From Escherichia coli (GTDB lineage: Bacteria; Pseudomonadota; Gammaproteobacteria; Enterobacterales; Enterobacteriaceae): a stretch of DNA of 54,847 bases. The notes beneath the pieces are model-generated. The model did no database searches. It saw only the letters and a program-made list of their open reading frames with translations, and had not been told where the DNA came from. The DNA is taken from assembly GCF_003334385.1 (NCBI RefSeq), contig NZ_QOWN01000031.1; one strand, 5' to 3'. Positions 37,856-54,847 of this stretch are shown here, in pieces. Every line of letters begins with the position of its first letter. The stretch's first letter is position 1. A program made the translations under genes and the position numbers.

Positions 37856-38043
37856 AGTTACCAGTCTCATAGGAGCGGACAATTTTCCGTTAGGTCGGGA
37901 AATTGTACTTTGATACATGAAAATACGGGTTTTCTTGATTCAGACGCGCAGCGGTGTGCGTTTGTTTGCCGCTATAGCGAAATAAATCAGAAAATCAGAC
38001 GCGGTCGTTCACTTGTTCAGCAACCAGATCAAAAGCCATTGAC

Positions 38044-38070
38044 TCAGCAAGGGTTGACCGTATAATTCAC
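38044..38070 (+). promoter_or_regulatory. Putative argU promoter
   Basis: TTGACT (38044-38049), 15-nt spacer, TATAAT (38065-38070), about 28 nt upstream of the mature tRNA 5' end. Confidence 0.5.
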
Positions 38071-38097
38071 GCGATTACACCGCATTGCGGTATCAAC

Positions 38098-38174
38098 GCG
38101 CCCTTAGCTCAGTTGGATAGAGCAACGACCTTCTAAGTCGTGGGCCGCAGGTTCGAATCCTGCAGGGCGCGCCA
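38098..38174 (+). tRNA. argU: tRNA-Arg (anticodon UCU)
   Basis: 77-nt cloverleaf sequence gcgcccttagctcagttggatagagcaacgaccttctaagtcgtgggccgcaggttcgaatcctgcagggcgcgcca, anticodon loop cuUCUaa, encoded CCA end. Confidence 0.95.
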
Positions 38175-38189
38175 TTACAATTCAATCAG

Positions 38190-39353
38190 TTACGCCTTCT
38201 TTATATCCTCCATAATTCCAGAGTGGGACATATTTGGGACATTATCACCAAAAATGTCGTCTATTTTCCTCGCATGCTCTGTCAAATGATTAGGCGCAAG
38301 GTGAGCATACCTACGAACCATTTCTATGGACTCCCATCCGCCCATTTCCTGAAGCACTGATAATGGGACGCCTGACTGAATCAGCCAGCTTGCCCAGGTG
38401 TGTCTGAGGTCATGGAAACGGAAATCTTCAATTCCTGCACGACGACAAGCTGATAGCCATGATGTCTTGCTGTCGATGCGCATCTTCCTGACCGCAGGCG
38501 TTGATGTTCCATCTGCTCGCTTAGCCGCCTTGGTATGTACAAACACCCATTTGTGATGCTTGCCTATTTGATCACGCAACACTTTACAGGCGGTATCGTT
38601 CAGCGCCACACCAATGGCGCGGTTTGATTTGCTCTCTTCTGGATTCACCCAGGCAACTCGTCGCTGCATGTCGATTTGTTGCCATTCCAGATTTATGATG
38701 TTCGACTTTCTCAGACCAGTTGCCAGCGCAAACTTGACGACAGATTTCAGTGGTTCGGGGCACTCATCAATAAGGCGTTTTGCTTCCTCCTTTTCCAGCC
38801 ATCTGACTCGCTTGTTTCTGACCGCTGGTATCTTGATGACAGGCGCTTTTTCCAGCCACTTCCAGTCGCGTTCTGCAGCACGGAGAATGGCCTTTATCAT
38901 GGCAAGATGCTTTGCCTTTGTCTGAGTTGATACTGGCTTTGGTTCATAAACAGGCGGTTCTTTACCTTTCCTGATGGCGGCCTGAACTTTCTGTTTCCAT
39001 ATTTCTTTCGTCTTTCTGTTATGCATTCTGCTTACAGCAGAGTAAATCTTTGCCTCCGAGATATCTTTAAGCCTTATACCCTCAAAATGTTCAAGCCAGA
39101 ACTCAATCCGGCTTTTATCTGAATCGAGAGATTTTTTATCAGCTTTTTCCTCAAGCCATCTTAGGCAGGCCTCTTCAAAAGTGACATCAGGTAAATCCCC
39201 TAGCTTTTCTACTCGCCAGAGTTCTGCTTTTCGCTTGTCGTGCAACTCCTGAGCTTGCCGCTTGTCCTTTGTGCCAAGAGATTCCTTAATTCGTTTCCCG
39301 CCCGGGAGCGAATACGAGGCATACCATATTTCATTTCTGCGGAAGAGTGACAT
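38190..39353 (-). CDS. intD: Phage tyrosine integrase
   Basis: 387-aa [36 protein letters not shown] with C-terminal catalytic HxxR...Y region; adjacent to the tRNA. Confidence 0.9.
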
Positions 39354-39580
39354 TTTCTTTCCTCTGTTATGCCATCACCCGCGCTCACCTGGACAGTATG
39401 CAGCGGAGACTGAAGCGCCGCAATGCAGGCTTGCCGTGTTGTGAGGTAAGGAGATTTTGGCTTGGTTGGATCTTTACGTGTTGCCTGTAGGCGGCCTGTT
39501 CGTATCCAGTTGGTGGCGGTTGGTCTGGATATCTTAAGAAACTGACAGGCCTCATCGAGTGTGAGGCTGTATGATTCCAT
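39209..39580 (-). CDS. Excisionase-like HTH protein; ORF overlaps the integrase start, possibly decayed
   Basis: AlpA/Xis-like HTH ([26 protein letters not shown]); start taken at MESYSL; 145-nt overlap with int in another frame. Confidence 0.4.
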
Positions 39581-39830
39581 GGTTACCTCTGCTTTTTGAA
39601 CGCATGTCACGTAACTTCTTAATGTGTTCTGCCGTTTCGATCTCTTCTGCTATCCGATCTGCATCAGCTTTATTCACAGGTTCAAAGTCATGATTAAAGC
39701 GGAACATGCTGGCGATACATGTTCTGCCTTTTCGGATGTAGTGAACTTTGTTGTGGGTAGAACGCAGGATTTTGCAGGGAGTGCCGTGGTGGTCGACGTA
39801 CCAGGTGTTAGGAAAAATGATTCTGAACAT
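39552..39830 (-). CDS. Hypothetical phage protein
   Basis: 92-aa ORF in the int-proximal early-left region. Confidence 0.35.
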   Translation of the reverse strand: MFRIIFPNTWYVDHHGTPCKILRSTHNKVHYIRKGRTCIASMFRFNHDFEPVNKADADRIAEEIETAEHIKKLRDMRSKSRGNHGIIQPHTR

Positions 39831-40095
39831 TTTTACACCTCAGTTGGACGATGTTGAAATTTGCTGCTTTGAGGCCATCACAGTCCCCATTGTTTGTTCT
39901 TAAGTTCGATCTCCTCCTGGCAACTTGCACAAGTCCGACAACCCTGAACAGCCAGGCGTCTTGCTCATCTATCGGATCGCCACACTCACAACAATGAGTT
40001 GCGGATACAGTCTGGTAGTTCTGACGACGCATTTTTATTGCTGTATTGCGCTGTAATTCTTCGATTTCTGATGCTGAATCAATGATGTCTGCCAT
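39808..40095 (-). CDS. Possible TraR/DksA-type C4 zinc-finger protein
   Basis: CCECGDPIDEQ motif in a 95-aa ORF; call is by eye only. Confidence 0.35.
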   Translation of the reverse strand: MADIIDSASEIEELQRNTAIKMRRQNYQTVSATHCCECGDPIDEQDAWLFRVVGLVQVARRRSNLRTNNGDCDGLKAANFNIVQLRCKNVQNHFS

Positions 40096-40193
40096 CTTCC
40101 ATTAATCCCTGAATTGTTGGTTAATACGCTTGAGGATGAATGCGAACAATAAAAAAGGAGCCTGTAGCTCCCTGATGATTTTGCTTTTCATGT

Positions 40194-40508
40194 TCACCGT
40201 TCCTTAAAGACGCCGTTTAACATGCCGATCGCCAGGCTTAAATGAGTCGGTGTGAATCCCATCAGCGTTACCGTTTCGCGGTGCTTCTTAAGTACGCTAC
40301 GGCAAATGTCATCGACGTTTTTATCCGGAAACTGCTGTCTGGCTTTTTTGATTTCAGAATTAGCCTGACGGGCAATGCTGCGAAGGGCGTTTTCCTGCTG
40401 AGGTGTCATTGAACAAGTCCCATGTCGGCAAGCATAAGCACACAGAATATGAAGCCCGCTGCCAGAAAAATGCATTCCGTGGTTGTCATGCAGCCTCCCG
40501 ACGGGCAA
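40194..40508 (-). CDS. Hypothetical phage protein
   Basis: 104-aa ORF; the true start may be the internal MTPQQENALRSIARQ. Confidence 0.3.
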   Translation of the reverse strand: MPVGRLHDNHGMHFSGSGLHILCAYACRHGTCSMTPQQENALRSIARQANSEIKKARQQFPDKNVDDICRSVLKKHRETVTLMGFTPTHLSLAIGMLNGVFKER

Positions 40509-41043
40509 GAATCCTTGAGCCGAACGCCATCAACTCTCCACGATCAACGGTCGTAAAGTGGCAGTGTGTACGGGGGTATGGGTGCCAGATAATGAGCATC
40601 GAGCCTTTATTATTTCCACTGACGGGTTTCTCAGTGAGTGGGTTAATAAATGCCAGTCGTCCTGCCGTGATGAATCTGACCTCACTGGCGGTTTGTATCG
40701 CTTCATGAAACCATCCGACAGATGTGTCAGCAGGCAATAACATTACACATCCCACACTACTGAATTTGTTTTCAGTGGCTGCCTTTTTCACAAAAGGGGA
40801 AATATTGCTGTATGGTGGATTCAACCAGACATAACCAGAGGCATATCCCATTGCTTCAGGCCATGAAGTGGTTAATGTGTTCTGCTCCTGTGAGATAAAA
40901 AGCCGACATAGTCGGTTTTTTTCGCTGGCGGCAGCATCAAGTTGAAAAACGAACTCTGCATTAAGCGCAGCAAAAATCTCTGGTGGTGTGCGCCAGCTGT
41001 CGCGATGTTCGGCAGGAGTATTGCTTCCGGTGAAATCAGTCAT
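40486..41043 (-). CDS. Phage DNA N6-adenine methyltransferase
   Basis: 185-aa ORF with the amino-methyltransferase catalytic motif NPPY (VWLNPPYSN). Confidence 0.6.
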   Translation of the reverse strand: MTDFTGSNTPAEHRDSWRTPPEIFAALNAEFVFQLDAAASEKNRLCRLFISQEQNTLTTSWPEAMGYASGYVWLNPPYSNISPFVKKAATENKFSSVGCVMLLPADTSVGWFHEAIQTASEVRFITAGRLAFINPLTEKPVSGNNKGSMLIIWHPYPRTHCHFTTVDRGELMAFGSRILARREAA

Positions 41044-41193
41044 ACAGCCCCCGTTTATTATTTATCGCCTCAGCCAGCCGCTGTGCTTTCAGTGGATTTC
41101 TGATAACAGAAAGGCCGGGAAATACCCAGCCTCGCTTTGTAACGGAGTAGATGAAAGTGATCGCGCCTACCCGGATATTATCGTGAGGATGCT

Positions 41194-41874
41194 TCATCGC
41201 CATTGCTCCCCAAATACAAAACCAATTTCAGCCAGTGCCACGTCCATTTTTTCGATGAACTCCGGCACCATCTCGTCAAAATTCGCCATGTACTTTTCAT
41301 TCCGCTCAATCACGACATAATGCAGGCCTTCACGCTTCATACGCGGGTCATAGTTGGCAAAGTACCAGGCATCTTTTCGCGTCACCCACATGCTGTACTG
41401 CACCTGGGCCATGTAAGCCGACTTTATGGCCTCGAAACCACCGAGCCGGAATTTCATGAAATCCCGGGAGGTAAACGGGCATTTCAGTTCAAGGCCGTTG
41501 CCGTCACTGCATAAACCATCGGGAGAGCAGGCGGTGCGCATACTTTCGTCGCGATAGATGATCGGGGATTCAGTAACATTCACGCCGGAAGTGAATTCAA
41601 ACAGGGTTCTGGCGTCGTTCTCGTACTGTTTTCCCCAGGCCAGCGCCTTAGCATTAACTTCCGGAGCCACACCGGTGCAAACCTCAGCCAGCAGGGTGTG
41701 GAAGTAGGACATTTTCATGTCAGGCCACTTCTTTCCTGAGCGGGGCTTTGCTATCACGTTGTGAACTTCTGAAGCGGTGATGACGCCGAGCCGTAATTTG
41801 TGCCATGCATCATCCCCCTGTTCGACAGCTCTCACGTCGATCCCGGTACGCTGCAGGATAATGTCCGGTGTCAT
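41194..41874 (-). CDS. exo: Lambda-type 5'-3' exonuclease (Red alpha)
   Basis: 226-aa translation matches lambda Exo as I recall it nearly residue for residue ([40 protein letters not shown]...). Confidence 0.9.
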
Positions 41875-42656
41875 GCTGCCACCTTCTGCTCAGTGGCTTT
41901 CTGTTTCAGGAATCCAAGAGCTTTCACTGCTTCGGCCTGTGTCAGTTCTGACGATGCGCGAATGTCGCGGCGAAATATCTGGGAACAGAGCGGCAATAAG
42001 TCGTCATCCCATGTTTTATCCAGGGCGATCAGCAGAGTGTTAATCTCCTGCATGGTTTCATCGTTAACCGGAGTGATGTCGCGTTCTGGCTGACGTTCTG
42101 CAGTGTATGCAGTATTTTCGACAATGCGCTCGGCTTCATCCTTGTCATAGATACCAGCAAATCCGAAGGCCAGGCGGGCACACTGAATCATGGCTTTATG
42201 CCGTAACATCCGTTTGGGATGCGACTGCCACGGGCCGGTGATTTCTCTGCCTTCGCGGGTTTTGAATGGTTCGCGTCGGCATTCATCCATCCACTCGGTA
42301 ACGCAGATCGGATGATTACGGTCCTTGCGGTAAATCCGGCATGTACAGGATTCATTGTCCTGCTCAAAGTCCATGCCATCAAACTGCTGGTTTTCATTGA
42401 TGATGCGGGACCAGCCATCAACGCCCACCACCGGAACGATGCCGTTCTGCTTATCAGGGAAGGCGTAAATTTCTTTCGTCCACGGATTAAGGCCGTATTG
42501 GTTGGCGACGATCAGCAATGCGATGAACTGCGCATCGCTGGCATCGCCTTTAAATGCTGTCTGGCGAAGAGTGGTGATCAGTTCCTGTGGGTCGACAGAA
42601 TCCATGCCGACACGTTCAGCCAGCTTCCCAGCCAGCGTTGCGAGTGCTGTACTCAT
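41871..42656 (-). CDS. bet: Lambda-type single-strand annealing protein (Red beta)
   Basis: 261-aa translation [66 protein letters not shown] matches lambda Bet as I recall it. Confidence 0.9.
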
Positions 42657-42661
42657 CCGTT

Positions 42662-42958
42662 TTATACCTCTGAATCAATATCAACCTGGTGGTGAGCAAT
42701 GGTTTCAACCATGTACTGGATGTGTTCTGCCATGCGCTCCTGAAACTCAACATCGTCATCAAACGCACGGGTAATGGCTTTTTTGCTGGCCCCGTGGCGT
42801 TGCAAATGATCGATGCATAGCGATTCAAACAGGTGCTGGGGCAGGCCTTTTTCCATGTCGTCTGCCAGTTCTGCCTCTTTCTCTTCACGGGCGATCTGCT
42901 GGTAGTGACGCGCCCAGCTCTGAGCCTCAAGACGATCCTGAATGTAATAAGCGTTCAT
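42662..42958 (-). CDS. gam: Gam host-nuclease (RecBCD) inhibitor, short form
   Basis: 98-aa translation [56 protein letters not shown] matches lambda GamS as I recall it. Confidence 0.85.
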
Positions 42959-43035
42959 GGCTGAACTCCTGAAAATGGCTGTGAAAATAGCGCCCGCGAA
43001 ATGCCAGGCTGATTAGGAAAACAGGAAAGGGGGGG

Positions 43036-43446
43036 TTAGTGATTCAGGCCGTTACCGCGTCCGTCGAGAAAAACTTCCACGAGCAAATCACGGGTATAAG
43101 TGCGCTCGATGCCGCGATGCAGATAAAGCCGTCCGCGTAAATTAGCTGATGCTGTCCAGGTACCATCTTTGTGTTTGACCAGCATTCCTGGCATGACCGC
43201 GCCGCGATTAACGGTCTGCGTTCCGTAATGTTGATGAACCATAAAAACTCCTGCCCGTAAGCTGGGCTGCTGAACATATAGAGACTTCTGCGCGTATTCA
43301 GGCGGTGGATGGCCGCCGGTTGTCATAACTAAGCCGCCTCGTTGAAGCGACTGAGGTATGAAATGTTGAGTTAATTTCAGCTGGTCACACCGACGTTCAC
43401 GCGTCCGTTTCACCCCTCGCACTCCCCGAAGCCTGCTGAAATTCAA
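43036..43446 (-). CDS. First gene downstream of the putative pL; arginine-rich N-terminus, possible N-like antiterminator or kil/cIII-position protein
   Basis: 136-aa ORF; N-terminal RLRGVRGVKRTRERR resembles an arginine-rich RNA-binding motif; position relative to OL/pL. Confidence 0.35.
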   Translation of the reverse strand: MNFSRLRGVRGVKRTRERRCDQLKLTQHFIPQSLQRGGLVMTTGGHPPPEYAQKSLYVQQPSLRAGVFMVHQHYGTQTVNRGAVMPGMLVKHKDGTWTASANLRGRLYLHRGIERTYTRDLLVEVFLDGRGNGLNH

Positions 43447-43463
43447 ACTGCGGATCTAAGCGG

Positions 43464-43515
43464 TCATCGCAACGGTGAATCAGGTAGTTGCCGTATCGTT
43501 GTGTTGTTGCGATGA
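43464..43515. promoter_or_regulatory. 10-bp perfect inverted repeat in the leader between the putative pL and the first early-left gene
   Basis: tcatcgcaac (43464-43473) and gttgcgatga (43506-43515) separated by 32 nt. Confidence 0.35.
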
Positions 43516-43519
43516 ACTT

Positions 43520-43600
43520 ATTTAAAACTATAGTTGTTTTATCGTCAACAACAAAAGTTGTTTTATTGGTTGTTTTAGATATAACTGGTTGTATTTAGGA
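43520..43600 (-). promoter_or_regulatory. Putative OL/pL: leftward promoter embedded in GTTGTT/AACAAC operator half-sites
   Basis: Minus-strand gttgTTGACGataaaacaactatagttTTAAAT is a near copy of the pR-side sequence; palindrome aacaacaaaagttgtt at 43555-43570. Confidence 0.5.
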
Positions 43601-43677
43601 TGGATTTATTTTGTGACTTGCATCGCACAGCGATAACTGAAGCGAGGTCGTGGTGGTTTTTTGAACTGTTTGTGTGA

Positions 43678-43705
43678 TGAGGGGAGGCAAAAGAAAACCC
43701 GGCAC
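43678..43705 (-). terminator. Rho-independent terminator ending the cI-defence-candidate transcript
   Basis: Minus strand cccggccgtcgtgccggg stem-loop (6-bp GC stem) followed by ttttctttt, 15 nt after the stop of the 287-aa ORF. Confidence 0.6.
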
Positions 43706-43719
43706 GACGGCCGGGGAAA

Positions 43720-44583
43720 TCATTTCGCATCTACAATAAATAACCTGTTTATCTGGCCTTTTTTAACAGTAGCCTTTGCGGTTATAGTGAATACTGCAGA
43801 TGGATCACCTTTGGTTGATATATATGCACTAAGAGCTCTAATATACGGGTTATTCTTCTTTCCTGCAGCTGGATCGCTAATTTCAGCAGTGATTCTCTTT
43901 TTTGAGTCATCACCATCTAAAATTATTTTAGCTGTCATATTTTGTGCATCAAATTCTGTAAGAAAAGCACGATACTCACGAAGACCGAGAACTTCATCAT
44001 CATCAAGCCTATCAATTTCAGCTTTATCTCTCTCGTTAACTTTTAGAAGGCAGCCGTCAACATTTGTTGCAACACTTATCTGATCGCAAGTATTACCAAT
44101 AGGTGATACTGCCTGCCTTACAGAGGGGCGAAGCTCTACAGCCATTCGGTCAATCAAAGAGATCAACTTATCAATGGTTCCAGCATCCTTGTTTCCCAGT
44201 GCCTCTATGGCCTTTTCAAGTGACTGCTGCAAAGCTTTCATTTCATCTTTCTTGTTAGAATTTCTCGCAAAAATATATTGTAGTATTGCGCCAAGTATAG
44301 TTGCGGCGATCCCCGAGAACAACTGGTTCTGAGTGGCGAAGTTAAGAACTGCTTCAAGAGTAAAGCAGTTAGCTTTTGCTTCGCGTGCGTAAACCTTAAC
44401 TTCCTGATAATTAATGTATTTACTATATTTTTGTGTAACAGAGAAAGAAGCTGCTGTTGAGAGAACTTTAGAAAAACCCTTTAGGGATTCTCCTAGGCAG
44501 TTCAAATCTATTTCATGATTTAAAGCATCTTTTCCGTCATACCTAAGAGAGATTTTTATATCCTGTAAAGCGTCACAATCCAT
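43720..44583 (-). CDS. Unknown-function 287-aa protein at the rexAB-equivalent immunity-region locus; candidate lysogen-expressed anti-phage/superinfection-exclusion protein
   Basis: Directly downstream of and co-oriented with the cI-like repressor; visibly AT-rich versus flanks; central hydrophobic segment [19 protein letters not shown]; followed by an intrinsic terminator; no motif I can assign. Confidence 0.55.
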
Positions 44584-44649
44584 AAATCGCTCTCGTCTAA
44601 TTCTAATTAAATTTACTATCCCCTAAACGACTCATCAGCACAGTACTGA

Positions 44650-45339
44650 TTATCCATGTTTCCTGTACGTCTGGGGCATGCTCCCAATAACCTTACCGAA
44701 GATGAACACACGGTTCATCTCGTCTTTCTCGATCGGGTCCCACGGTGAGTAGCTCTTGTTATCAGAGATAACCAGCAGCTTATCCTTCATCATTTGCAGG
44801 CGCTTTACATGGGCTGTGTCGTCGTACAGAAACGCATAGATACCATCACCGTCGAAAGATTTAACCGTGATATCAACGAACAGCAGATCACCTGGTTCGA
44901 TCGTTCCTGACATGCTGTCACCACGCACGTTAATGATGCGGATATTTTCCGCCTTCCTACCATCGAACATGTGACGAGCATCGTCAAACGAGTACTCAAC
45001 CGAGCGTAGAACTTCTACAAACTCACGGTTGATGACTCCCGGCCCAGCACTGACTTCTATATCAAGAACGTCAATCTTGAAGTATTTGGAATGGCTGACA
45101 GTTGATTGTATTGGTTGCACTGTACTGTCTGACATATTTCCAACGCCAGAAGATAACCATTCTGCGCGCACACCCAAAGCGTTCGCGATCTCCACGATTT
45201 TAGTTGTTTGATTAGCTTTCCCTGTTTCGATTTTCTGAATAGCAGCCTGGCTAACCCCGACCAAATCCCCAAGCGCCTTTTGTGTAAGGCCTCGCGCTAA
45301 TCTGGCTTCTTTAAGTCTTTCTGAGAGTGTTGTTTTCAT
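44650..45339 (-). CDS. cI-like prophage repressor (HTH plus S24 LexA-like autopeptidase domain)
   Basis: Start taken at MKTTLSERLKEARLARGLTQKALGDLVGVSQAAIQKIETG (XRE HTH); C-terminal domain with GDSM motif (NVRGDSMSGTIEPGD) and a downstream lysine (HVKRLQ); divergent from cro. Confidence 0.8.
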   Translation of the reverse strand: MKTTLSERLKEARLARGLTQKALGDLVGVSQAAIQKIETGKANQTTKIVEIANALGVRAEWLSSGVGNMSDSTVQPIQSTVSHSKYFKIDVLDIEVSAGPGVINREFVEVLRSVEYSFDDARHMFDGRKAENIRIINVRGDSMSGTIEPGDLLFVDITVKSFDGDGIYAFLYDDTAHVKRLQMMKDKLLVISDNKSYSPWDPIEKDEMNRVFIFGKVIGSMPQTYRKHG

Positions 45340-45443
45340 AGTCCAAATGTACAACCAAGGTTTTATTCCATCAAACGAAAATGGTTGTTGACTAAAAACA
45401 ACCATAGTTTTAATCTTGATTCAAATTAACCACGGAGGTTGTT
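45340..45443. promoter_or_regulatory. Putative OR region with pR (and presumably pRM) between cI and cro
   Basis: Palindrome ATGGTTGTTgactaaaAACAACCAT (45381-45405); TTGACT (45388-45393), 17-nt spacer, TAATCT (45411-45416); additional GGTTGTT/AACAACC half-sites at about 45350 and 45437. Confidence 0.6.
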
Positions 45444-45674
45444 ATGAACCCAGCTATCAAAACAGCGATCAATATCGTTGGTTCACAAAAGAAACTGGGC
45501 GCTGCTTGCGAAGTTTCACAGCAGGCCGTCTATAAGTGGCTTCACAACAAAGCAAAGGTATCCCCTGAACATGTCGGCAGCATTGTTACGGCTACTGGTG
45601 GAGTAGTGAAGGCATACCAGATTCGCCCGGATCTTCCGAAGTTGTTTCCACACACCGAAAAGAACGCAGCTTAA
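45444..45674 (+). CDS. Cro-like small DNA-binding protein
   Basis: 76-aa ORF divergent from cI with GGAGG ribosome-binding site; HTH-like segment LGAACEVSQQAVYKWL. Confidence 0.65.
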   Translation: MNPAIKTAINIVGSQKKLGAACEVSQQAVYKWLHNKAKVSPEHVGSIVTATGGVVKAYQIRPDLPKLFPHTEKNAA

Positions 45675-45743
45675 ATTTCCATTTCACGCTCTTTAACAAT
45701 AAGCAATCAACTTAACAGTCAATTCAAACTAAAGGAGTCAATT

Positions 45744-46283: not shown

Positions 46284-46369
46284 CAGGTTCAGAAATGGCG
46301 AAAGCCGGTCTGCTGGAACAGAACCGACTTTCAGGTGCAAATCGTAACACACTCATTGCGGGAGGAATT

Positions 46370-47299
46370 ATGGCAAACACTGCTGAGATATTCAATTTTC
46401 CAGTGCCGGATGCGGCACAAAAGGAGCCGCGCGTGGCAGATCTCGATGATGGTTATACGCGCATTGCAAATGAGTTGCTGGAAGCTGTAATGCTGGCCGG
46501 ATTAACACAGCACCAGCTTCTGGTCTTCCTGGCTGTCATGCGCAAAACATATGGCTTTAATAAAAAACTGGATTGGGTGAGCAACGAGCAACTTTCCGAG
46601 TTGACCGGGATATTGCCGCACAAGTGTTCTGCTGCAAAAAGTGTTCTGGTAAAGCGTGGGATTTTTATTCAGAGCGGGCGGAATATCGGCATTAATAATG
46701 TGGTCAGTGAATGGTCAACATTACCCGAATCAGGTAAGAAAAATAAAGTTTACCTGAAAGAGGTAAATTTACCTGAATCAGGTAAGAAAAGTTTACCCAA
46801 ATCAGGTAAAGACGTTTACCCGAATCAGGTAAACACAAAAGACAAACTAACAAAAGACAATATAAAACCTTTTTCGTCCGAGAATTCTGGCGAATCCTCT
46901 GACCAGCCAGAAAACGATCTTCCTGTGGTGAAACCGGATGCTGCAATTCAGAGCGGCAGCAAGTGGGGGACAGCAGAAGACCTGACCGCCGCAGAGTGGA
47001 TGTTTGACATGGTGAAGACCATCGCGCCATCAGCCAGAAAACCGAATTTTGCAGGGTGGGCTAACGATATCCGCCTGATGCGTGAACGTGACGGACGTAA
47101 CCACCGCGACATGTGTGTACTGTTCCGCTGGGCATGCCAGGACAACTTCTGGTCCGGTAACGTGCTGAGTCCGGCCAAACTCCGCGACAAGTGGACCCAG
47201 CTCGAAATCAACCGTAACAAGCAACAGGCAGGCATGATAGCCAGCAAACCAAAACTCGACCTGACAAACACTGACTGGATTTACGGGGTGGATTTATGA
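46370..47299 (+). CDS. Replication initiator protein O
   Basis: Start taken at MANTAEIFNFPVPD; N-terminal region resembles lambda O (VADLDDGYTRIANELLEA...LAVMRKTYGFNK); contains iterons internally. Confidence 0.8.
   Translation: MANTAEIFNFPVPDAAQKEPRVADLDDGYTRIANELLEAVMLAGLTQHQLLVFLAVMRKTYGFNKKLDWVSNEQLSELTGILPHKCSAAKSVLVKRGIFIQSGRNIGINNVVSEWSTLPESGKKNKVYLKEVNLPESGKKSLPKSGKDVYPNQVNTKDKLTKDNIKPFSSENSGESSDQPENDLPVVKPDAAIQSGSKWGTAEDLTAAEWMFDMVKTIAPSARKPNFAGWANDIRLMRERDGRNHRDMCVLFRWACQDNFWSGNVLSPAKLRDKWTQLEINRNKQQAGMIASKPKLDLTNTDWIYGVDL
46721..46833 (+). repeat. Replication origin iterons inside the O gene
   Basis: Five copies of about 19 bp TTTACC(C/T)(G/A)AATCAGGTAA(G/A), followed by an A-rich stretch (acaaaagacaaactaacaaaagacaatataaaacc). 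Confidence 0.75.
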
Positions 47300-47997
47300 A
47301 AAACATCGCCGCACAGATGGTTAACTTTGACCGTGAGCAGATGCGTCGGATCGCCAACAACATGCCGGAACAGTACGACGAAAAGCCGCAGGTACAGCAG
47401 GTAGCGCAGATCATCAACGGTGTGTTCAGCCAGTTACTGGCAACTTTCCCGGCGAGCCTGGCTAACCGTGACCAGAATGAACTGAACGAAATCCGCCGCC
47501 AGTGGGTTCTGGCTTTCCGGGAAAATGGGATCACCACGATGGAACAGGTTAACGCTGGAATGCGCGTAGCCCGTCGGCAGAATCGACCATTCCTGCCATC
47601 ACCCGGGCAGTTTGTTGCCTGGTGCCGGGAAGAAGCATCCGTTACCGCCGGGCTGCCAAACGCCAGCGAGCTGGTTGATATGGTTTACGAGTATTGCCGG
47701 AAGCGTGGCCTGTATCCGGACGCAGAGTCTTATCCATGGAAATCAAACGCGCACTACTGGTTGGTTACCAACCTGTACCAGAACATGCGGGCCAATGCGC
47801 TGACTGACGCGGAATTACGGCGTAAAGCTGCCGATGAGCTGACCTGTATGACCGCGCGAATTAACCGTGGTGAGGCGATACCTGAACCAGTAAAACAACT
47901 TCCTGTCATGGGCGGTAGACCTTTAAATCGTGCACAGGCTTTGGCGAAGATCGCAGAAATCAAAGCTAAGTTCGGACTGAAAGGAGCAAGTGTATGA
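47296..47997 (+). CDS. Replication protein P (DnaB helicase loader)
   Basis: 233-aa translation matches lambda P as I recall it (MKNIAAQMVNFDREQMRRIANNMPEQYDEKPQVQQVAQIINGVFSQLLATFPASLANRD). Confidence 0.85.
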   Translation: MKNIAAQMVNFDREQMRRIANNMPEQYDEKPQVQQVAQIINGVFSQLLATFPASLANRDQNELNEIRRQWVLAFRENGITTMEQVNAGMRVARRQNRPFLPSPGQFVAWCREEASVTAGLPNASELVDMVYEYCRKRGLYPDAESYPWKSNAHYWLVTNLYQNMRANALTDAELRRKAADELTCMTARINRGEAIPEPVKQLPVMGGRPLNRAQALAKIAEIKAKFGLKGASV

Positions 47998-48287
47998 CGG
48001 GCAAAGAGGCAATTATTTATTACCTGGGGACGCATAAGAGCTTCTGTGCGCAGGACGTTGCCGCGGTAACAGGCGCAACAGTAACCAGCATAAATCAGGC
48101 TGCGGCTAAAATGGCGCGGGCAGGAATCTTGGTCATTGATGGTAAGGTCTGGCGAACGGTGTATTACAGATTCGCTACCAGGGAAGAACGGGAAGGAAAG
48201 GTGAGCACTAACCTGATTTTTAAGGAGTGTCGCCAGAGTGCCGCGATGAAGCGGGTGTTGATGGTTTGGGGGAGGGTAGGGGTATGA
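47994..48287 (+). CDS. ren: Ren protein
   Basis: 97-aa translation MTGKEAIIYYLGTHKSFCAQDVAAVTGATVTSINQAAAKMARAGILVIDGKVWRTVYYRFATREEREGK matches lambda Ren as I recall it. Confidence 0.8.
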   Translation: MTGKEAIIYYLGTHKSFCAQDVAAVTGATVTSINQAAAKMARAGILVIDGKVWRTVYYRFATREEREGKVSTNLIFKECRQSAAMKRVLMVWGRVGV

Positions 48288-48484
48288 GCATGATGGATTT
48301 CGCAGAAACTAAAAAGGCTATCGACGCCATCACAACCGACTGGTCTATCCGAGGACCGTATCACGAAGACGACGGGAAATATTACGCCTTGCTTCGTGGA
48401 GAGTGGGTTGGTGGCGGGTATATCGGAAAACGGAAAGCCCTTGATGCCATTCTCGAAAAGTTAATCCAGGAGGCCGCCCAATGA
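48284..48484 (+). CDS. Hypothetical nin-region protein
   Basis: Start taken at MSMMDFAETKKAIDAITTDW within ORF 48227-48484. Confidence 0.4.
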   Translation: MSMMDFAETKKAIDAITTDWSIRGPYHEDDGKYYALLRGEWVGGGYIGKRKALDAILEKLIQEAAQ

Positions 48485-48696
48485 GCAACATCGACAAACC
48501 GTGAACTGGTGGATGCCGCCATTGAATTGGCCGGAGAGTTTTATGCGATGCAGGGCTATTCGCATCGTCCTGGCTTCAAGTATTGGCAATCTCCGCACCC
48601 GCATGAGCGCCTGTGCTTTGAAATGGCTTGTGTGGCATTCGAAACCATTCGCGGCTCAGATGTAATGGACGCCGTATCTGAGTTGGAGGATGAAGA

Positions 48697-49110
48697 ATGA
48701 GCAACATCGACAAACGCGCATTACGTGAAATCGCTGAGGCAGCAGTTGGTGCACATGAGCGCCTTAGTGTTATGCCGCCTGATGACATTTTCGATATCTC
48801 ACTGGCAGAAGGAACTCAGCTTGATGCAGATATCACTGCCTTGAGCGCGCTGAACTCCGCAGCCAACCCAGCCACAGTGCTGGCGCTGCTGGATGAGCTG
48901 GAAGCCAAAGACCAGAGGATTGCTGTGCTGACCGAATCGCTCAAGCAGACGGTTTCAGGATACAAATCCTGCCTGCGTACCGGACATGAGCGCATTCTTG
49001 ACCTTGGCGGTGACTGTGACGCGCCAGAAGTGATGATTGCAGGCAATCCTGACATTCAGCAGGCGCAGAAGCTGATCGCCGCCGCATCCGGTAAAGGAGA
49101 GGCATCATGA
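48697..49110 (+). CDS. Hypothetical phage protein, possibly Ead/Ea22-like N-terminal module
   Basis: 137-aa ORF MSNIDKRALREIAEAAVGAHERL...ALLDELEAKDQRIAVL (coiled-coil-like); the same first 6 codons recur at 48481 in a truncated copy. Confidence 0.4.
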   Translation: MSNIDKRALREIAEAAVGAHERLSVMPPDDIFDISLAEGTQLDADITALSALNSAANPATVLALLDELEAKDQRIAVLTESLKQTVSGYKSCLRTGHERILDLGGDCDAPEVMIAGNPDIQQAQKLIAAASGKGEAS

Positions 49111-49151
49111 GCACTATTACCAAACAATGACTGCAGCAGAAAATTGCCGAC

Positions 49152-49913
49152 ATGGAAGCAGCCAGAGATGAAATCCCGTTCGGTCTGGACGAAGGCGACA
49201 GCAACACGCTGGCGGCACTGCGTATCGCGCTGGCATCGCTCGAAGCGGAGCCTGCCATTCACCGGTGGCGTCGTGTGACCTCTGAGCCATACGGCCCCTA
49301 TCCTTGGCATTATGGTGATTTTATCGGCTTCTCAAAGCCCGTTGATGGGATTGAGGATGAGTATTTTTACTCCGCCCCGCCAGAGCCAGCCAATGCCGAA
49401 ACCGTAGCCTGGCTGTGGTCACACAGGAAACACCCGAGCGAAGTCACGCTTGTTCGCCCTGAAGATGATGAGAGAGCGGAGGGTGCTCACTGGTCTGGCT
49501 GGAGTTGTCAGGCGCTTTATGCAGCACCGCCAGTTCCGGTATCTGTGCCCACATTCGAGAAATGGTGTGAGTTGACTGAGCAGAAACCTGTCGGATGGGG
49601 GCGTGATGCTATGAAAGAAGCGTATGACGGATGCCGCGACGCCATGCTTCAGGGTGCCGAAAAAGCCGAGTCGCCCACCACCATGCAGACCGCGCCAGCC
49701 CTAGATTCTTCGCCAAAAATTTCCGAGTCGCCCGTCAGCAACTCTCCGGTGATTCCGGATGGTTGGGTGCTGGTTCCTAAGGAGCCAACTCCAGAAATGC
49801 GTGAGGCGTACCATCAGGCGCAGGAAGAGTGTGAAGATGGCGGTAGATTATGGAGCCCAGACCACCAATGGAAGGCCATGATCGCAGCAGCACCGCAGCA
49901 GGAGGCGAAGTGA
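49152..49913 (+). CDS. Hypothetical phage protein, possibly Ea22-like C-terminal part
   Basis: 253-aa ORF with PTPEMREAY motif near the C-terminus; separated from the preceding ORF by stops in all frames. Confidence 0.35.
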   Translation: MEAARDEIPFGLDEGDSNTLAALRIALASLEAEPAIHRWRRVTSEPYGPYPWHYGDFIGFSKPVDGIEDEYFYSAPPEPANAETVAWLWSHRKHPSEVTLVRPEDDERAEGAHWSGWSCQALYAAPPVPVSVPTFEKWCELTEQKPVGWGRDAMKEAYDGCRDAMLQGAEKAESPTTMQTAPALDSSPKISESPVSNSPVIPDGWVLVPKEPTPEMREAYHQAQEECEDGGRLWSPDHQWKAMIAAAPQQEAK

Positions 49914-49964
49914 TTATGTCGTGACAGCATAATTGCGATGTCAACGATAAGCAGAGGTTTGAAA

Positions 49965-50159
49965 ATGAAATCACAATCACCAGTGCAGCATGAAGTTAAC
50001 ATCGACGGCAAAGAGTATGTTGTCACAGTAGTCCAAACCGGCAAGTCAACGTGGAGGGCATGGGGAGATTCCTGGGGGCGCCATATAGTCGAAACAGGTT
50101 CTAGCGAACATAGCGCGCTTTCTCATTGGAAAGCAAAAGCTTTAGTTATGAATGGGTAG
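49965..50159 (+). CDS. Hypothetical small protein
   Basis: Start taken at MKSQSPVQHEVNIDGKEYVV within ORF 49938-50159. Confidence 0.3.
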   Translation: MKSQSPVQHEVNIDGKEYVVTVVQTGKSTWRAWGDSWGRHIVETGSSEHSALSHWKAKALVMNG

Positions 50160-50182
50160 CGCGGAAACTTTGAAGGTATAAT

Positions 50183-50208
50183 CCCCTCAAATAATCGAGG
50201 GGGTTTTT
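50183..50208 (+). terminator. Intrinsic terminator hairpin directly abutting the start of the following cargo gene
   Basis: cccctcaaataatcgagggg followed by gttttt; the 3' arm overlaps the probable ribosome-binding site of the ORF starting at 50209. Confidence 0.5.
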
Positions 50209-50718
50209 ATGTCTGGTTGGGATAACGGTATAGATGCAGTTTCTGCGATTGCAGCTATCGCATCTGCGGTAGCAACTTATTTAGCATGGCGATCCTCAGA
50301 AGCTAGCAGGGCCACATCCGAAAAAGCTTTGCAGTTGCAAGGAAAGCAGTATTTGTACGAGACATTAAAAGCTTGCGCTGAGAGAGCGAATTCATACTCA
50401 AAAGGAAAGAAAGGGGCTGACTGGAGCTTTCATGACGCAGCCAATATTGTTCGATGTTTGAACATGGCAATGGGGAGCATAATAAATTACTCAGATACCA
50501 ACAATCAGGATGCAATGAAAGGTCTGAAGCAATTCTTTATTAGCCAATTAAACATGGAGCTTTTTGAAGAGCTCAACTATGAGGTTGGGCCTGATGCCTT
50601 CTTTCACGGAGAGGAGCTAACCAGCATGACGAGCGATATTTACTCGCAGTGGTTAAACATTATTTCATTCTTTAACCTCATGATTGTCACAGATGATGAC
50701 CTCGCCGATGAAACATAG
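50209..50718 (+). CDS. Unknown-function 169-aa membrane-anchored protein; moron-like cargo
   Basis: N-terminal hydrophobic helix (IDAVSAIAAIASAVATYLAW); AT-rich; insulated by an upstream hairpin and a 187-bp downstream spacer; occupies the variable locus that carries emrE/ybcKLM in K-12 DLP12. Confidence 0.5.
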   Translation: MSGWDNGIDAVSAIAAIASAVATYLAWRSSEASRATSEKALQLQGKQYLYETLKACAERANSYSKGKKGADWSFHDAANIVRCLNMAMGSIINYSDTNNQDAMKGLKQFFISQLNMELFEELNYEVGPDAFFHGEELTSMTSDIYSQWLNIISFFNLMIVTDDDLADET

Positions 50719-50905
50719 CTTGATTGATTTTCCATAATCAACCCGCCATAATCATGTCATCGGAGCCTGAACAACTCCGGTGACTTCTGCGCTAAACGGG
50801 GACGTTTATGCGCATATACAATCCAAACTCTCTTCTCCCTTCACAGATGCAGAAATGCACCTGCGTTTTTTTGCATCCAACGTTTGACCTCTGCGGAGGT
50901 GAAGC

Positions 50906-51361
50906 GTGAACCTCCCACAAGACGGTATCAAATTGCATCGCGGTAACTTCACCGCTATCGGTCAGCAGATCCAGCCTTATCTGGAGGACGGAAAATGCTT
51001 TCGCATGGTGCTTAAACCGTGGCGTGAGAAACGCAGTCTTTCCCAGAATGCACTCAGCCACATGTGGTACAGCGAAATCAGTGAATACCTCATCAGCAGG
51101 GGTAAAACGTTCGCCACTCCAGCTTGGGTAAAAGATGCTCTCAAACACACATATCTCGGTTATGAAACCAAAGACTTGGTTGATGTCGTAACCGGTGAGA
51201 TCACCACTATCCAGTCGTTACGCCATACCTCCGATCTTGATACCGGAGAGATGTATATCTTCCTGTGTAAGGTTGAAGCCTGGGCGGTGAATATTGGCTG
51301 CCACCTGACTATTCCGCAGAGCTGCGAGTTCCAGCTGCTCCGCGACAAACAGGAGGAGTAA
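50906..51361 (+). CDS. ybcN: DLP12-type NinB-position protein (DNA base-flipping protein)
   Basis: 151-aa translation [50 protein letters not shown] matches K-12 YbcN as I recall it; GTG start with GGAGG ribosome-binding site. Confidence 0.8.
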
Positions 51362-51531
51362 TGGCTACACCGCTTATTCGTGTCATGAACGGACACATCT
51401 ACAGAGTACCAAATCGTCGTAAGCGTAAACCGGAGCTGAAGCCTTCCGAAATACCAACACTGCTCGGATATACCGCCAGCCTGGTTGATAAAAAATGGTT
51501 GCGACTGGCAGCAAGGAGGAATCATGGCTGA
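51361..51531 (+). CDS. ninE: NinE-like protein
   Basis: 56-aa [59 protein letters not shown]; not in the ORF track because it is under 60 aa. Confidence 0.7.
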   Translation: MATPLIRVMNGHIYRVPNRRKRKPELKPSEIPTLLGYTASLVDKKWLRLAARRNHG

Positions 51532-51814
51532 TTTGAGAAAAGCAGCGCGTAGTCGGGAATGCCAGGTAAGAATCCCTGGCGTATGTAATGGCAACCCTGA
51601 AACGTCTGTACTGGCACATATCCGGCTGACTGGATTGTGCGGCACCGGTACCAAACCGCCAGACCTGATTGCCACCATTGCATGTTCTGCCTGCCACGAC
51701 GAAATCGACCGCCGCACACATTTTGTCGATGCTGCATATGCAAAAGAATGCGCGCTGGAAGGTATGGCGAGAACACAGGTTATCTGGCTGAAAGAGGGGG
51801 TTATTAAGGCGTGA
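51524..51814 (+). CDS. ybcO: DUF1364-family putative nuclease
   Basis: Start at [28 protein letters not shown] (96 aa); Cys-rich; overlaps the ninE end. Confidence 0.75.
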
Positions 51815-52173
51815 ATACCTACAGCATCACATTACCCTGGCCTCCGAGCAATAATCGCTATTACCGCCATAATCGCGGGCGCACGCACGTCAGCGCAGAG
51901 GGGCAGGCATACCGCGATAACGTCGCCCGAATCATTAAAAACGCAATGCTGGATATCGGCCTGGCTATGCCTGTGAAAATCCGCATTGAGTGCCACATGC
52001 CGGATCGCCGTCGCCGTGACCTGGATAATCTGCAAAAAGCCGCTTTTGACGCACTCACTAAAGCAGGTTTCTGGCTGGATGATGCTCAGGTCGTTGATTA
52101 CCGCGTTGTGAAGATGCCTGTTACCAAAGGTGGGAGGCTGGAACTGACCATCACCGAAATGGGGAATGAATGA
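51811..52173 (+). CDS. rusA: Holliday junction resolvase RusA
   Basis: 120-aa translation [31 protein letters not shown] matches K-12 RusA as I recall it. Confidence 0.9.
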
Positions 52174-52310
52174 TGTTTGAGTTTTATATGGCAGAACGTC
52201 TTCGCCACCGCTGGGGGCGTCTGCGCTTATATCGTTTCCCCGGTTCTGTTTTGACCGATTACCGAATACTGAAGAATTACGCCAAAACCCTGACAGGAGC
52301 AGGAGTATGA
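52170..52310 (+). CDS. ylcG: Small protein YlcG
   Basis: 46-aa [49 protein letters not shown] overlapping the rusA stop. Confidence 0.6.
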
Positions 52311-52395
52311 AGTCAGAGATAACAATCAACTAATACTGTTTCGTTGATTTTTGCTTGTAATTGGCGTTCTGGTCTGATTTTTGTGGAGTAAGTTG

Positions 52396-52779
52396 ATGCG
52401 TGATATTCAGATGGTTCTTGAGCGTTGGGGAGCGTGGGCGGCTAATAATCATGAAGATGTGACCTGGTCGTCCATTGCCGCCGGTTTTAAGGGATTAATT
52501 ACTTCAAAAGTAAAATCTCGCCCGCAATGTTGTGACGATGACGCGATGATCATTTGCGGGTGCATGGCCCGTCTGAAAAAGAACAACAGCGATTTGCACG
52601 ATTTATTAGTAGATTATTATGTAGTCGGTATGACATTCATGTCACTGGCAGGTAAGCATTGCTGCTCTGATGGTTATATCGGGAAAAGGTTACAGAAGGC
52701 TGAGGGCATAATTGAAGGGATGTTAATGGCATTAGATATCCGGTTAGAGATGGATATCGTTGTTAATAACTCTAATTAA
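52396..52779 (+). CDS. quuD: Q-like late-gene antiterminator
   Basis: Start at [22 protein letters not shown] (127 aa); Cys-rich zinc-binding region [12 protein letters not shown]. Confidence 0.8.
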
Positions 52780-52799
52780 TACGCCAATTATTTACTAAA

Positions 52800-52965
52800 A
52801 GTTATTAAAAATGGGGCGTTGAAACGCCCCCAAAAATAAAGGGTAATATATAACAGAAGGTTTGTATAGTTAGAAGCAAGGTTGTGCTTCTAAAGGAAGT
52901 GGCTTGAGGGAGCCACTTATATGTTGGGGAGGCAAAGCCTCCCACAACATATCTTTTAGTAATCA
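52800..52965 (-). terminator. Cluster of stem-loops downstream of nmpC (terminator region)
   Basis: Hairpins ggggcgttgaaacgcccc (T-run on the minus strand), gaagcaaggttgtgcttc, gtggcttgagggagccac, gttggggaggcaaagcctcccacaac. Confidence 0.55.
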
Positions 52966-52967
52966 AA

Positions 52968-54050
52968 TTAGAACTGGTAAACCATACCTACAGCAACGAT
53001 ATCATCGGTAGCAACGCCAGATGCTTTCGTGAAATCGCTCTTATCAATCAGGTTGATTTTGTAGTCAACAAAAGTGGACATATTTTTGTTGAAGTAATAG
53101 GTTGCACCTACATCAACATATTCAACCAGGTCCTGATCACCCCAAACACCCAAGTCTTTTCCTTTAGAATGCAGGTAAGCAACGGATGGACGCAGGCCGA
53201 AGTCGAACTGATATTGTGCAACAGCTTCGAAGTTTTGTGCTTTGTTGGCAATATGGTTATTACCAAAAACAGTCATGTTCTGGGTTTCAGAATAGGTGGT
53301 GGCCAGATAGATGTTGTTCGCATCATATTTCAGACCAGCTGCCCATACTTCAGCATTTTGACCAGAAGCATTCAGACCGTTGTTACCGTAGATAACCTGA
53401 TTATTAGTGCGATCAGATTTAGCATAGGTTGCACCCACGCCGAATCCTTCATACTCATAAGTAGTTGAGAAACCGAAACCATCGCCATTAGCTTCAGTTA
53501 CTTCATTTCGGTCATTTTTGCCCTGATACTGAGCTGCAAAGTTCAGGCCATCAACCAGACCAAAGAAGTCGTTGTTACGATAAGTTGCAACACCTGTGGT
53601 GCGACCAGTCATGAATACATCTGTTTGGGTCCAGGTATCGCCACCGAATTCTGGCAGAACGTCAGTCCACGCACCGATGTCGTATGCTACACCGTAGTTA
53701 CGGCCGTAATCGATTGAGCCGTAGTCACCGAATTTCAGGCCTGCAAATGCAAGACGGGTTTTGTCTTTGGAGGAACCTTGAGATTCAGCGCGGTTGCCTT
53801 TGAATTCATATTCCCACTGACCGAAACCAGTCAGTTGATCGTTGATTTGGGTTTCACCTTTGAAGCCAAGACGGGCATAAGTAGTATCACCATCATCTGC
53901 ATCATTAGAGGAGAAGTAGTGCTTAGCATTAACTTTCCCGTACAGATCCAGCTTGTTACTGTCTTTATTATAAATTTCAGCTGCCTGAGCAGACATCGCC
54001 ATCAGTACTGATGCAGCTACAGCAGAAATTGCCACTGTTAATTTTTTCAT
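52968..54050 (-). CDS. nmpC: OmpC-family general porin, uninterrupted
   Basis: 360-aa ORF with signal peptide [23 protein letters not shown], beta-barrel porin sequence ending in the typical C-terminal F (VGMVYQF); lies between quuD and essD. Confidence 0.85.
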
Positions 54051-54638
54051 CGTGAGCCCTTTTTTTTGAACTATTATTAAAAAATGATGTCACTGCGCGA
54101 TAAATATTCATCTAATCAATGTGATTATTTCAAGATGTAAGTTTTAGTTTCTCATTTAATTTGTGAAGTAGATCTCTATTTTTATCTGAACTTTTTCTAT
54201 CGAAACCTATTTATGGCTCTTATTTGAACAAAAATAAACCTATTAGCTAATTTATATTAATGGCTGTTATTTATGGGGGTTCTATAATTCGGCAGTTTAA
54301 TTTAAATCAACTAAAAATAACCTCTGAAATTATTTATTGGTTATTTGTTGAGGTTTTCTTATGTATTTGTGGTGGTGTTTTGAACACTCGGTAGCATTCT
54401 CATAAATATCATTCAGTGGTTTACGTACGTAAAAAATTGGTTATGCTGTTAAGAGTGGTTACTTCGTCACACAGCTTAAACCCGCCGTCGAGCTGGTTTT
54501 TCCATTTTTTGAGTCTCGATATTAGCTGATAACTCAATACCTGAGTTATTCACTGACTCCGAGTCTGTTACGTTTCTGCTTTTTTGCGATACGTTGTATT
54601 CCCTCAATTTACACCCGCTTTGTCTGCGAGGTGGGGTT

Positions 54639-54847
54639 ATGAAATCCATGGATAAGTTAACAACGGGTGTCGCCTATGGCACCTCAGCAGGTAGTGCCGG
54701 TTACTGGTTTTTACAGCTGCTCGATAAAGTCACGCCCTCACAGTGGGCAGCAATAGGTGTGCTGGGTAGCCTGGTATTTGGCCTGCTGACGTACCTGACA
54801 AACCTTTATTTCAAGATTAAAGAAGATAAGCGCAAGGCTGCGAGAGG
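54639..54847 (+). CDS. essD: Phage holin (3' partial at the window end)
   Basis: [68 protein letters not shown] matches K-12 EssD as I recall it; the ORF runs off the window. Confidence 0.75.

Follow-up and report, generated by a model that had tools for sequence, protein, structure and literature searches.

The right-hand part of a 54,847-nucleotide (nt) stretch of Escherichia coli DNA (RefSeq assembly GCF_003334385.1, contig NZ_QOWN01000031.1; the whole stretch is hereafter called the window) is, with high probability, the left arm of a temperate lambdoid prophage of about 46.8 kb, which belongs to the lineage of the K-12 prophage DLP12 and the isolated phage PhiR34_1. This arm extends from 38130 to 54847 and would have been integrated by IntD at the 3′ end of argU. 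Its early half, that is, immunity, excision, replication and Red recombination, is very probably functional, as judged from sequence. The window ends inside essD at 54847 and covers the left ~36% of the element; the region beyond it was read by proxy from the genome of SCU-104 (NZ_CP053284.1), in a locus designated L001, in which window position equals L001 position plus 36097.

The integration site carries the following features:

38098-38174, plus strand: argU tRNA-Arg(UCU), the integration target (ARAGORN; Rfam tRNA match)
38130-38176, no strand: attL core, 47 bp at the 3′ end of argU, starting GGGCCGCAGGTTCGAATCCTGCAGGGCGCGCCA... (blastn-short against the SCU-104 attR)
38190-39353, minus strand: intD tyrosine integrase, 387 aa (tyrosine-recombinase NCBIfam matches; identity to K-12 IntD)
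39209-39580, minus strand: xis excisionase, 123 aa (phrog_2907 residues 1-116 of 117, E 6e-46)

Only one tRNA gene was detected in the window by ARAGORN, and the intD stop codon lies 15 bp from its 3′ end, so that the integrase is immediately 3′ of argU, as an earlier note on this DNA had described. From 38190 to the window end, phage open reading frames (ORFs) follow one another continuously. IntD is 99.5% identical to K-12 IntD, 100% to the integrase of phage ev243 and 99.7% to that of PhiR34_1. An exact copy of the 47-bp core was found with blastn-short in SCU-104, between ompT and envY (L001 48829-48875); the attR that the earlier note proposed to look for thus exists as a perfect repeat in the proxy genome. 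An integrase of this type adjacent to argU, together with the duplicated core, identifies a DLP12-type (argU) prophage. A 47-bp argU repeat is also given for DLP12 in PMC6379469, and the placement of ompT inside the prophage limits agrees with that paper and with the K-12 annotation. The xis and int ORFs share 145 nt. The RefSeq/PGAP entry at xis is merely a 22-aa "helix-turn-helix, incomplete" pseudogene; this short call suggests an annotation gap and not a pseudogene, because the full 123-aa ORF fits an excisionase family over its whole length and does not differ from ev243 Xis (100% identity).

In a megablast search with 38098-54847, all 5426 of 5426 complete E. coli genomes matched somewhere, and at least 80% of the segment was present in one place in 32 of the 5426. 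The best match was SCU-104, with 100% coverage and 4 mismatches over 16.75 kb (positions 41422, 41452, 42070 and 49130, all transitions). None of the complete genomes searched is thus identical to the segment, which comes from a very close relative of the SCU-104 prophage and not from that record itself; the chromosomal flank agrees with many strains at about 100% identity, with no exact match among those listed. The SCU-104 prophage, 46.8 kb long with ompT included, has an aligned share of 78% with PhiR34_1 (PV340559.1), 55% with lambda (NC_001416) and 25% with K-12 DLP12 (NC_000913.3 564755-586056). The origin of individual segments was mapped by blastn of the SCU-104 locus against lambda and K-12 DLP12, and protein identities were obtained by tblastn of the window ORFs. 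The resulting mosaic, in window coordinates, is:

36098-39448 (fimZ, argU, int, part of xis): DLP12, 99.9% nt identity
39901-40489: lambda, 95.8%
41041-43042 (orf60a to gam): lambda, 97.4%
43043-46832: neither lambda nor DLP12
46833-48260 (O C-terminus, P, ren): lambda, 94.6%
48266-50723: neither lambda nor DLP12
50724-53009: DLP12, 97.5%
53026 onward: DLP12, 91.9%

The element is lambdoid both in having modules homologous to, and hence exchangeable with, those of lambda and in gene order (int-xis, recombination, immunity, replication, nin, Q, lysis, head, tail), which can be followed in the window up to the holin. The earlier note had interpreted it as a lambda-type Red, immunity and replication module joined to a DLP12-type nin/Q/lysis module. 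Its protein assignments were borne out: exo, bet, gam, P and ren products are close to lambda (97.8%, 99.2%, 97.0%, 98.3% and 89.2%), those of ybcN, ninE, ybcO, rusA, ylcG, quuD, nmpC and essD form the DLP12 set at 91-100% identity to K-12, and emrE and ybcKLM are absent, with no counterpart in the window by blastn. The joining of two modules, in contrast, does not stand. A fresh recombinant, in which lambda contributed Red, P and ren and a resident DLP12 remnant contributed int, nin, Q and lysis, would account for the alternation of 94-97% lambda segments with 92-99.9% DLP12 segments, and recombination of lambdoid phages with cryptic prophages is already known (De Paepe et al. 2014, as cited in PMC6379469). 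However, such an origin is contradicted by K-12 DLP12 itself, in which exoD, peaD (a P fragment) and renD align colinearly to the window with identities of 98.0%, 95.5% and 94.0%; no lambda x DLP12 cross is needed, because these lambda-like exo, P and ren fragments are kept there in the same order. Moreover, the same arrangement occurs in the isolated phages PhiR34_1 and ev243 and in the 32 complete E. coli genomes, and neither lambda nor K-12 DLP12 is the source of the immunity region and of the N-terminal part of O. We therefore consider a fresh recombinant very improbable.

By sequence comparison, K-12 DLP12 is a deletion and insertion sequence (IS) remnant of a PhiR34_1-like phage, and the window represents another member of this lineage. 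The K-12 deletion junctions fall at 39448/41168, 41473/47686 and 57628/79378 in window-equivalent coordinates. That the window prophage is itself inert and cryptic, in the manner of the K-12 DLP12 remnant, or that it is a chimera produced by assembly, is hardly credible: nothing speaks for it beyond the common att site and the int, nin, Q and lysis genes, whereas the window contains no IS elements or large deletions, its core ORFs are all open, and independent complete genomes show the genes in the same contiguous order. The element is better described as a less-decayed DLP12 relative at the same att site, as the earlier note had suggested, with int, xis, Red, repressor/cro, O, P and Q intact.

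The evidence for a functional early half comes from its individual modules. To the left of pL are the recombination genes and kil:

41194-41874, minus strand: exo (Red alpha), 97.8% to lambda, full length (tblastn)
41871-42656, minus strand: bet (Red beta), 99.2% to lambda, full length (tblastn)
42662-42958, minus strand: gam, 97.0% to lambda, full length (tblastn)
43036-43242, minus strand: kil-type cell-division inhibitor, start possibly further upstream at 43326 (phrog_294)

The full-length exo, bet and gam trio constitutes a predicted lambda Red system, with A255T as the sole residue change of Bet from lambda, and the kil product is 100% identical in PhiR34_1 and phage 4A7. Bet of SCU-104 carries P196L, where the window Bet retains the lambda residue.

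The immunity region contains the following features:

43510-43560, minus strand: pL and operator GTTGTTGACGATAAAACAAC at 43533-43552 (motif scan; sequence reading)
43698-43715, minus strand: intrinsic-terminator-like hairpin closing the transcription unit of cI and a 287-aa cargo gene (hairpin scan)
44650-45339, minus strand: CI-type repressor, 229 aa, S24 peptidase (phrog_4; phrog_6201)
45340-45443, no strand: divergent pRM/pR region, 104 bp between cI and cro (sequence; scans)
45444-45674, plus strand: cro-like repressor, 76 aa (phrog_35)
45687-45699, plus strand: exact boxA (CGCTCTTTAACAA) directly after cro (sequence scan)
45744-46283, plus strand: CII-like activator, YdaT family, 179 aa (phrog_163)

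The earlier note had regarded the immunity as lambda-type, which proved incorrect. No nucleotide similarity to lambda or K-12 DLP12 was detected by blastn in 43043-46832, no lambda match was found by tblastn at E<=1e-3 for CI, Cro or the CII-like protein, and the O N-terminus and iterons also differ. The arrangement is nonetheless lambdoid, with divergent cI (minus strand) and cro (plus strand) and predicted common operators at pL and pR. An operator-like motif, GTTGTTGAC.A.AAAACAAC, is confined to pL (43533-43552) and pR (45384-45403), with 0.03 occurrences expected by chance, and a 25-bp palindromic operator, ATGGTTGTTGACTAAAAACAACCAT (45381-45405), overlaps the pR -35 element. In its translation, CI carries the Ala-Gly site, the GDSM serine and the VKRL lysine expected for a self-cleaving S24 repressor. 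The 251-aa cI start in the PhiR34_1 record was rejected in favor of the 229-aa PGAP start, as it would fall within the pR operator palindrome (45405).

CI, Cro and CII are each 100% identical to their PhiR34_1 counterparts, and for this reason we infer that the window prophage and PhiR34_1 have the same immunity. In alignments, the pL region is identical to that of PhiR34_1, and the pL operator region is scrambled relative to heteroimmune 4A7. The prophage would thus be assigned to the PhiR34_1 immunity group, with identical repressor, Cro and operators, and not to the imm-lambda group, which is defined by lambda cI, cro, oL/oR, N and rexAB. Neither ral nor sieB nor rexAB was found in the window prophage.

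Replication and late control genes occupy the remainder of the window:

46280-47299, plus strand: O replication initiator, 339 aa (phrog_277)
46716-46864, no strand: ori, five iterons TTACCYGAAWSAGGTAA (46716-46837) followed by an A/T-rich stretch (repeat search; blastn junction)
47296-47997, plus strand: P helicase loader, 98.3% to lambda P (tblastn)
47994-48287, plus strand: ren, 89.2% to lambda Ren (tblastn)
50808-52310, plus strand: nin-region genes ylcH, ybcN, ninE, ybcO, rusA and ylcG, 85-100% to K-12 DLP12 proteins
52396-52779, plus strand: quuD, Q-type late antiterminator, 100% to K-12 QuuD and to PhiR34_1 Q
52968-54050, minus strand: nmpC porin moron, intact, 360 aa (NCBIfam OmpC subfamily)
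54639-54847, plus strand: essD holin, cut by the window end, 100% to K-12 EssD

O is 67.5% identical to lambda O overall, only its C-terminal part being lambda-like, and 98.8% identical to PhiR34_1 O. Nucleotide homology to lambda resumes in blastn at 46833, right at the end of the last iteron; the end of the iterons inside O is a classical module boundary. P is 98.3% identical to PhiR34_1 P. The nin/Q/lysis genes are of the DLP12 set, and comparison with K-12 DLP12 by tblastn gave 95.4% for YbcN, 98.2% for NinE, 97.9% for YbcO, 100% for RusA and 95.7% for YlcG. A predicted Q-type late antiterminator, QuuD, is followed by nmpC and essD. NmpC is 90.8% identical to K-12 NmpC, which is interrupted by IS5 there and uninterrupted here, and 100% identical to the ev243 porin.

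All core early genes in the window are open, with no internal stops, and their products are 98-100% identical to those of isolated phages (92% for Ren). The earlier statement that the Red genes, repressor/cro, O and P are present and intact therefore holds; the broader description of a largely intact prophage holds for the early half, the late half being outside the window.

Several observations weigh against a functional lambdoid prophage. No N was found among the ORFs after pL with PHROGs and NCBIfam, no cIII was found in the window, and a sequence scan revealed no nutL copy and no recognizable boxB beside the boxA that follows cro; because of these absences, delayed-early transcription in the manner of lambda is not demonstrated. 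Two lesions are present in the window, both in accessory genes: a frameshift in a TraR-like gene (39963/39962) and W8* in a 268-aa ORF. The late genes are located outside the window, and everything right of 54847 is extrapolated from relatives. In these relatives, lesions were met: SCU-104 gpM has W79* (TGG>TGA; L001 33610-33939, window-equivalent 69707-70036), and the prophage of NCTC9112 (L016) has ISEc12 in J and a terminase A gene flagged as frameshifted.

With regard to the first of these points, the N-less layout is also present in isolated phages, including 4A7, PhiR34_1, 4C10, PhiR5_1 and others, and is therefore a property of a viable lineage and not a defect; an N-type antiterminator with nutL and nutR is not universal among lambdoid phages, as 4A7 and PhiR34_1 lack it. 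Early antitermination in this lineage, with its near-invariant pL leader and lone boxA, may work differently from that of lambda. The leader, ~260 nt long (43243-43560, minus strand), is almost invariant between heteroimmune phages. Folding of the 268-nt pL leader was no better than that of shuffled sequence (z = 0.0). As a substitute for N, a put RNA of the HK022 type was considered and rejected: blastn of the immunity region against HK022 gave a weak cI-like match only and nothing in the leaders, and the Rfam scan returned only the tRNA and an IS009 match in a tail-fibre assembly gene. In the window as well as in 4A7, the kil reading frame stays open upstream as an Arg-rich extension; a credible start, a ribosome-binding site and a profile match are all lacking, and an N-like protein is not claimed.

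Production of infectious particles depends on late genes outside the window, which are lesioned in the two closest sequenced relatives. Two readings of the prophage as a whole were weighed. According to one, to which we give an even chance, it was recently crippled: it would still be able to repress, excise, replicate, recombine and lyse, and a tail or head gene hit by a point mutation or an IS would prevent formation of infectious particles. The gpM stop in SCU-104, the disrupted J and frameshifted A in NCTC9112, and the accessory-gene lesions in the window point in this direction. On the other hand, the data do not extend to the late genes of the window's own genome, and the NCTC9112 terminase frameshift could be a long-read assembly error. 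According to the other reading, which we regard as plausible and yet somewhat improbable, the prophage is fully viable and SOS-inducible, and yields infectious lambda-like virions. This is consistent with essential early genes that are intact and identical or nearly so to those of isolated phages, and with the state of SCU-104, whose cosQ and cosN are both intact, whose cos-to-J region matches lambda 1-18474 at 97.2% identity (blastn), and whose late proteins from Nu1 to J are full-length, at 87-100% to lambda, except for gpM. In addition, the NCTC9112 prophage, which shares the early region and cargo, has an intact M, so the gpM stop is a recent strain-level event that is perhaps not present in the window's strain. 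What argues against full viability is that the closest genome, only four mismatches away, carries this stop, that the next closest has an IS-disrupted J, and that the window's own nonsense change and frameshift in accessory genes show ongoing mutational decay. The late-gene lesions differ between SCU-104 and NCTC9112, and sister copies were therefore hit independently. The suggestion in the earlier note that the element may still be functional is thus supported for the early half, by its identity to plaque-forming phages, and opposed by the late-gene lesions of the two relatives; its proposed check for such lesions was answered in these genomes, the window's own late genes being outside the data.

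Compared to PhiR34_1, the window has three swapped cassettes, in slots after orf61, cI and ren. The first slot and its surroundings contain:

39552-39830, minus strand: DUF4222 protein, accessory (phrog_285; annotation)
39878-40095, minus strand: TraR/DksA-like zinc-finger gene, broken by a 1-bp deletion between 39963 and 39962 (alignment; PGAP "frameshifted")
40194-40409, minus strand: orf61-like accessory gene, 100% over 52 aa to lambda (phrog_303)
40486-41043, minus strand: orphan Dam-like N6-adenine methyltransferase (phrog_111; PADLOC oMTase)
41036-41197, minus strand: orf60a (DUF1317), 94% to lambda

The frameshift in the TraR/DksA-like gene was judged by alignment against ev243, PhiR34_1, 4A7 and lambda. 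Cassette 1 (40490-41040) consists of the Dam-like methyltransferase in place of PhiR34_1 orf63, and a 100% identical copy is present in phage PhiR30_1.

Cassette 2 (43716-44650), which PhiR34_1 lacks, carries a single gene:

43720-44583, minus strand: 287-aa DUF7946+DUF7947 protein, in the position of rexAB (Pfam)

This gene is located 66 bp downstream of cI and ahead of the terminator, and its product is 62% identical to phi80 gp40A. In unrelated prophages of Vitreoscilla and of Morganella (three different ones), a DUF7946/7947 homolog likewise follows an S24 repressor gene directly, and a Serratia DUF7946/7947 gene adjoins an Abi_2 gene (related loci L009 and L011-L015). In the AlphaFold model (predicted local distance difference test, pLDDT, 76), the C-terminal part forms an OB-fold-like barrel, which would fit sensing of phage single-stranded DNA or of a protein ligand. 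The literature searched contained no mention of DUF7946 or DUF7947. We tentatively suggest, as a possibility of rather low likelihood, that the protein is an uncharacterized superinfection-exclusion or abortive-infection determinant expressed in the lysogen.

Cassette 3 replaces emrE-ybcKLM and comprises five ORFs:

48266-50723, plus strand: cassette 3 as a whole (annotation; profiles; PhiR34_1 comparison)
48284-48484 and 48509-48700, plus strand: small ORFs
48697-49110, plus strand: ea22-like ORF
49107-49913, plus strand: 268-aa ORF with W8* at 49130
50209-50718, plus strand: 169-aa ORF (phrog_1779)

The W8* change is TGG>TGA in the window and is not found in SCU-104. Each sequenced phage covers 10% of the cassette at most, and the cassette is present in both the SCU-104 and NCTC9112 prophages. 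The emrE, ylcJ and ybcKLM genes of DLP12 (L003 6217-10285) had no counterpart in the window by blastn. A terminator-like hairpin (50180-50205) precedes the 169-aa ORF; another hairpin, in the leftward early region, is at 43009-42992.

In the SCU-104 right arm, between the tail-fibre assembly gene and attR (L001 43836-48406), genes for a Mn-catalase, two ferritin-like proteins and a small general stress protein were observed; this cargo amounts to a katN/yciEFG-like cluster with a ybcY-type SAM (S-adenosylmethionine) methyltransferase and ompT.

The gene order (attL, int, xis, accessory genes, exo-bet-gam, kil, pL, cargo, cI, pRM/pR, cro, cII-like, O with ori, P, ren, cargo cassette, nin, Q, nmpC, lysis), together with the ORFs and the att, cos, ori and operator features, is read directly from sequence, and a working scheme can be laid over it by analogy with lambda. 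In the lysogen, the S24-type CI would bind the GTTGT...ACAAC operators overlapping pL and pR and repress both, cI and the 287-aa cargo gene presumably being co-transcribed from pRM. SOS-activated RecA would trigger CI self-cleavage. The pL promoter would then drive Kil, Gam, Bet, Exo, Xis and Int, and pR would drive Cro, CII, O and P. O is predicted to bind the five iterons, with P recruiting and loading DnaB, and QuuD to antiterminate the late transcript across essD-rrrD-rzpD and on into head and tail genes of the lambda type. Int and Xis would excise the prophage at the 47-bp cores.

As a discovery, the window prophage has little weight: it is an ordinary one, lambdoid argU prophages are among the commonest in E. 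coli, and live phages with the same backbone and a 99.98% identical prophage are already present in GenBank and RefSeq, respectively. Its value is modest and lies in serving as a reference for K-12 DLP12 before decay, with the deletion junctions visible, and as a clear case of cassettes exchanged at three cargo slots. Strains that contain this prophage have apparently functional Red genes, a Dam-like methylase, one additional porin and a repressor expected to confer immunity to phages of the PhiR34_1 type.

Comparison with named phages and prophages places the element more precisely. With lambda, the prophage has Rz and bor in common, and Nu1 to J of SCU-104 are 97.2% identical in nucleotide sequence, with the same cos site; it differs in int, xis, att, CI, Cro, CII, operators, the O N-terminus, the nin region, Q, holin and endolysin, lambda has four iterons where the window has five TTACCYGAAWSAGGTAA repeats, and nmpC is an added moron in the window prophage. 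K-12 DLP12 has the same att site and the common genes nmpC, essD-rrrD-rzpD, bor, nohD, ybcY and ompT. However, it has lost the xis start (cut at window 39448) and most of exo, as well as bet, gam, kil, O and the entire immunity region; one half of P is gone, as are ~21.7 kb that encode head and tail. An IS3 copy sits in its ren and an IS5 copy in its nmpC, and emrE-ybcKLM and appY are present.

Among isolated phages, ev243 (Nesevirus) has the same Q and lysis genes, and its ompT is next to attP, like that of the prophage, but unlike the window it has true lambda immunity (N, rexAB, lambda cI, cro and O). Phage 4A7 (Bievrevirus) has a different integrase, is heteroimmune (CI 81%, Cro 48%) and has other cargo after cI; common to both are the N-less pL leader-kil-gam-bet-exo layout, the CII/O type and the cargo slot downstream of cI. 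PhiR34_1, whose GenBank host is MG1655, is an isolated phage with the same int-xis-Red-kil-pL-cI-cro-cII-O-P-ren backbone as the window, and PhiR phages serve as a panel of live temperate phages in PMC13190303, which cites Brenes & Laub 2025. It differs in cargo: orf63 in place of the Dam-like methyltransferase, no gene at the site downstream of cI that the DUF7946/7947 gene occupies in the window, and a Pin-type recombinase in the right arm where the SCU-104 prophage has catalase/ferritin genes, ybcY and ompT. After ren, PhiR34_1 continues with emrE-ylcJ-ybcK-ybcL-ybcM-ybcN...Q, nmpC, lysis and lambda-type heads and tails, the emrE-ybcM slot being occupied in the window by cassette 3. The attP is shared, the nin genes are similar and nmpC is common to both.

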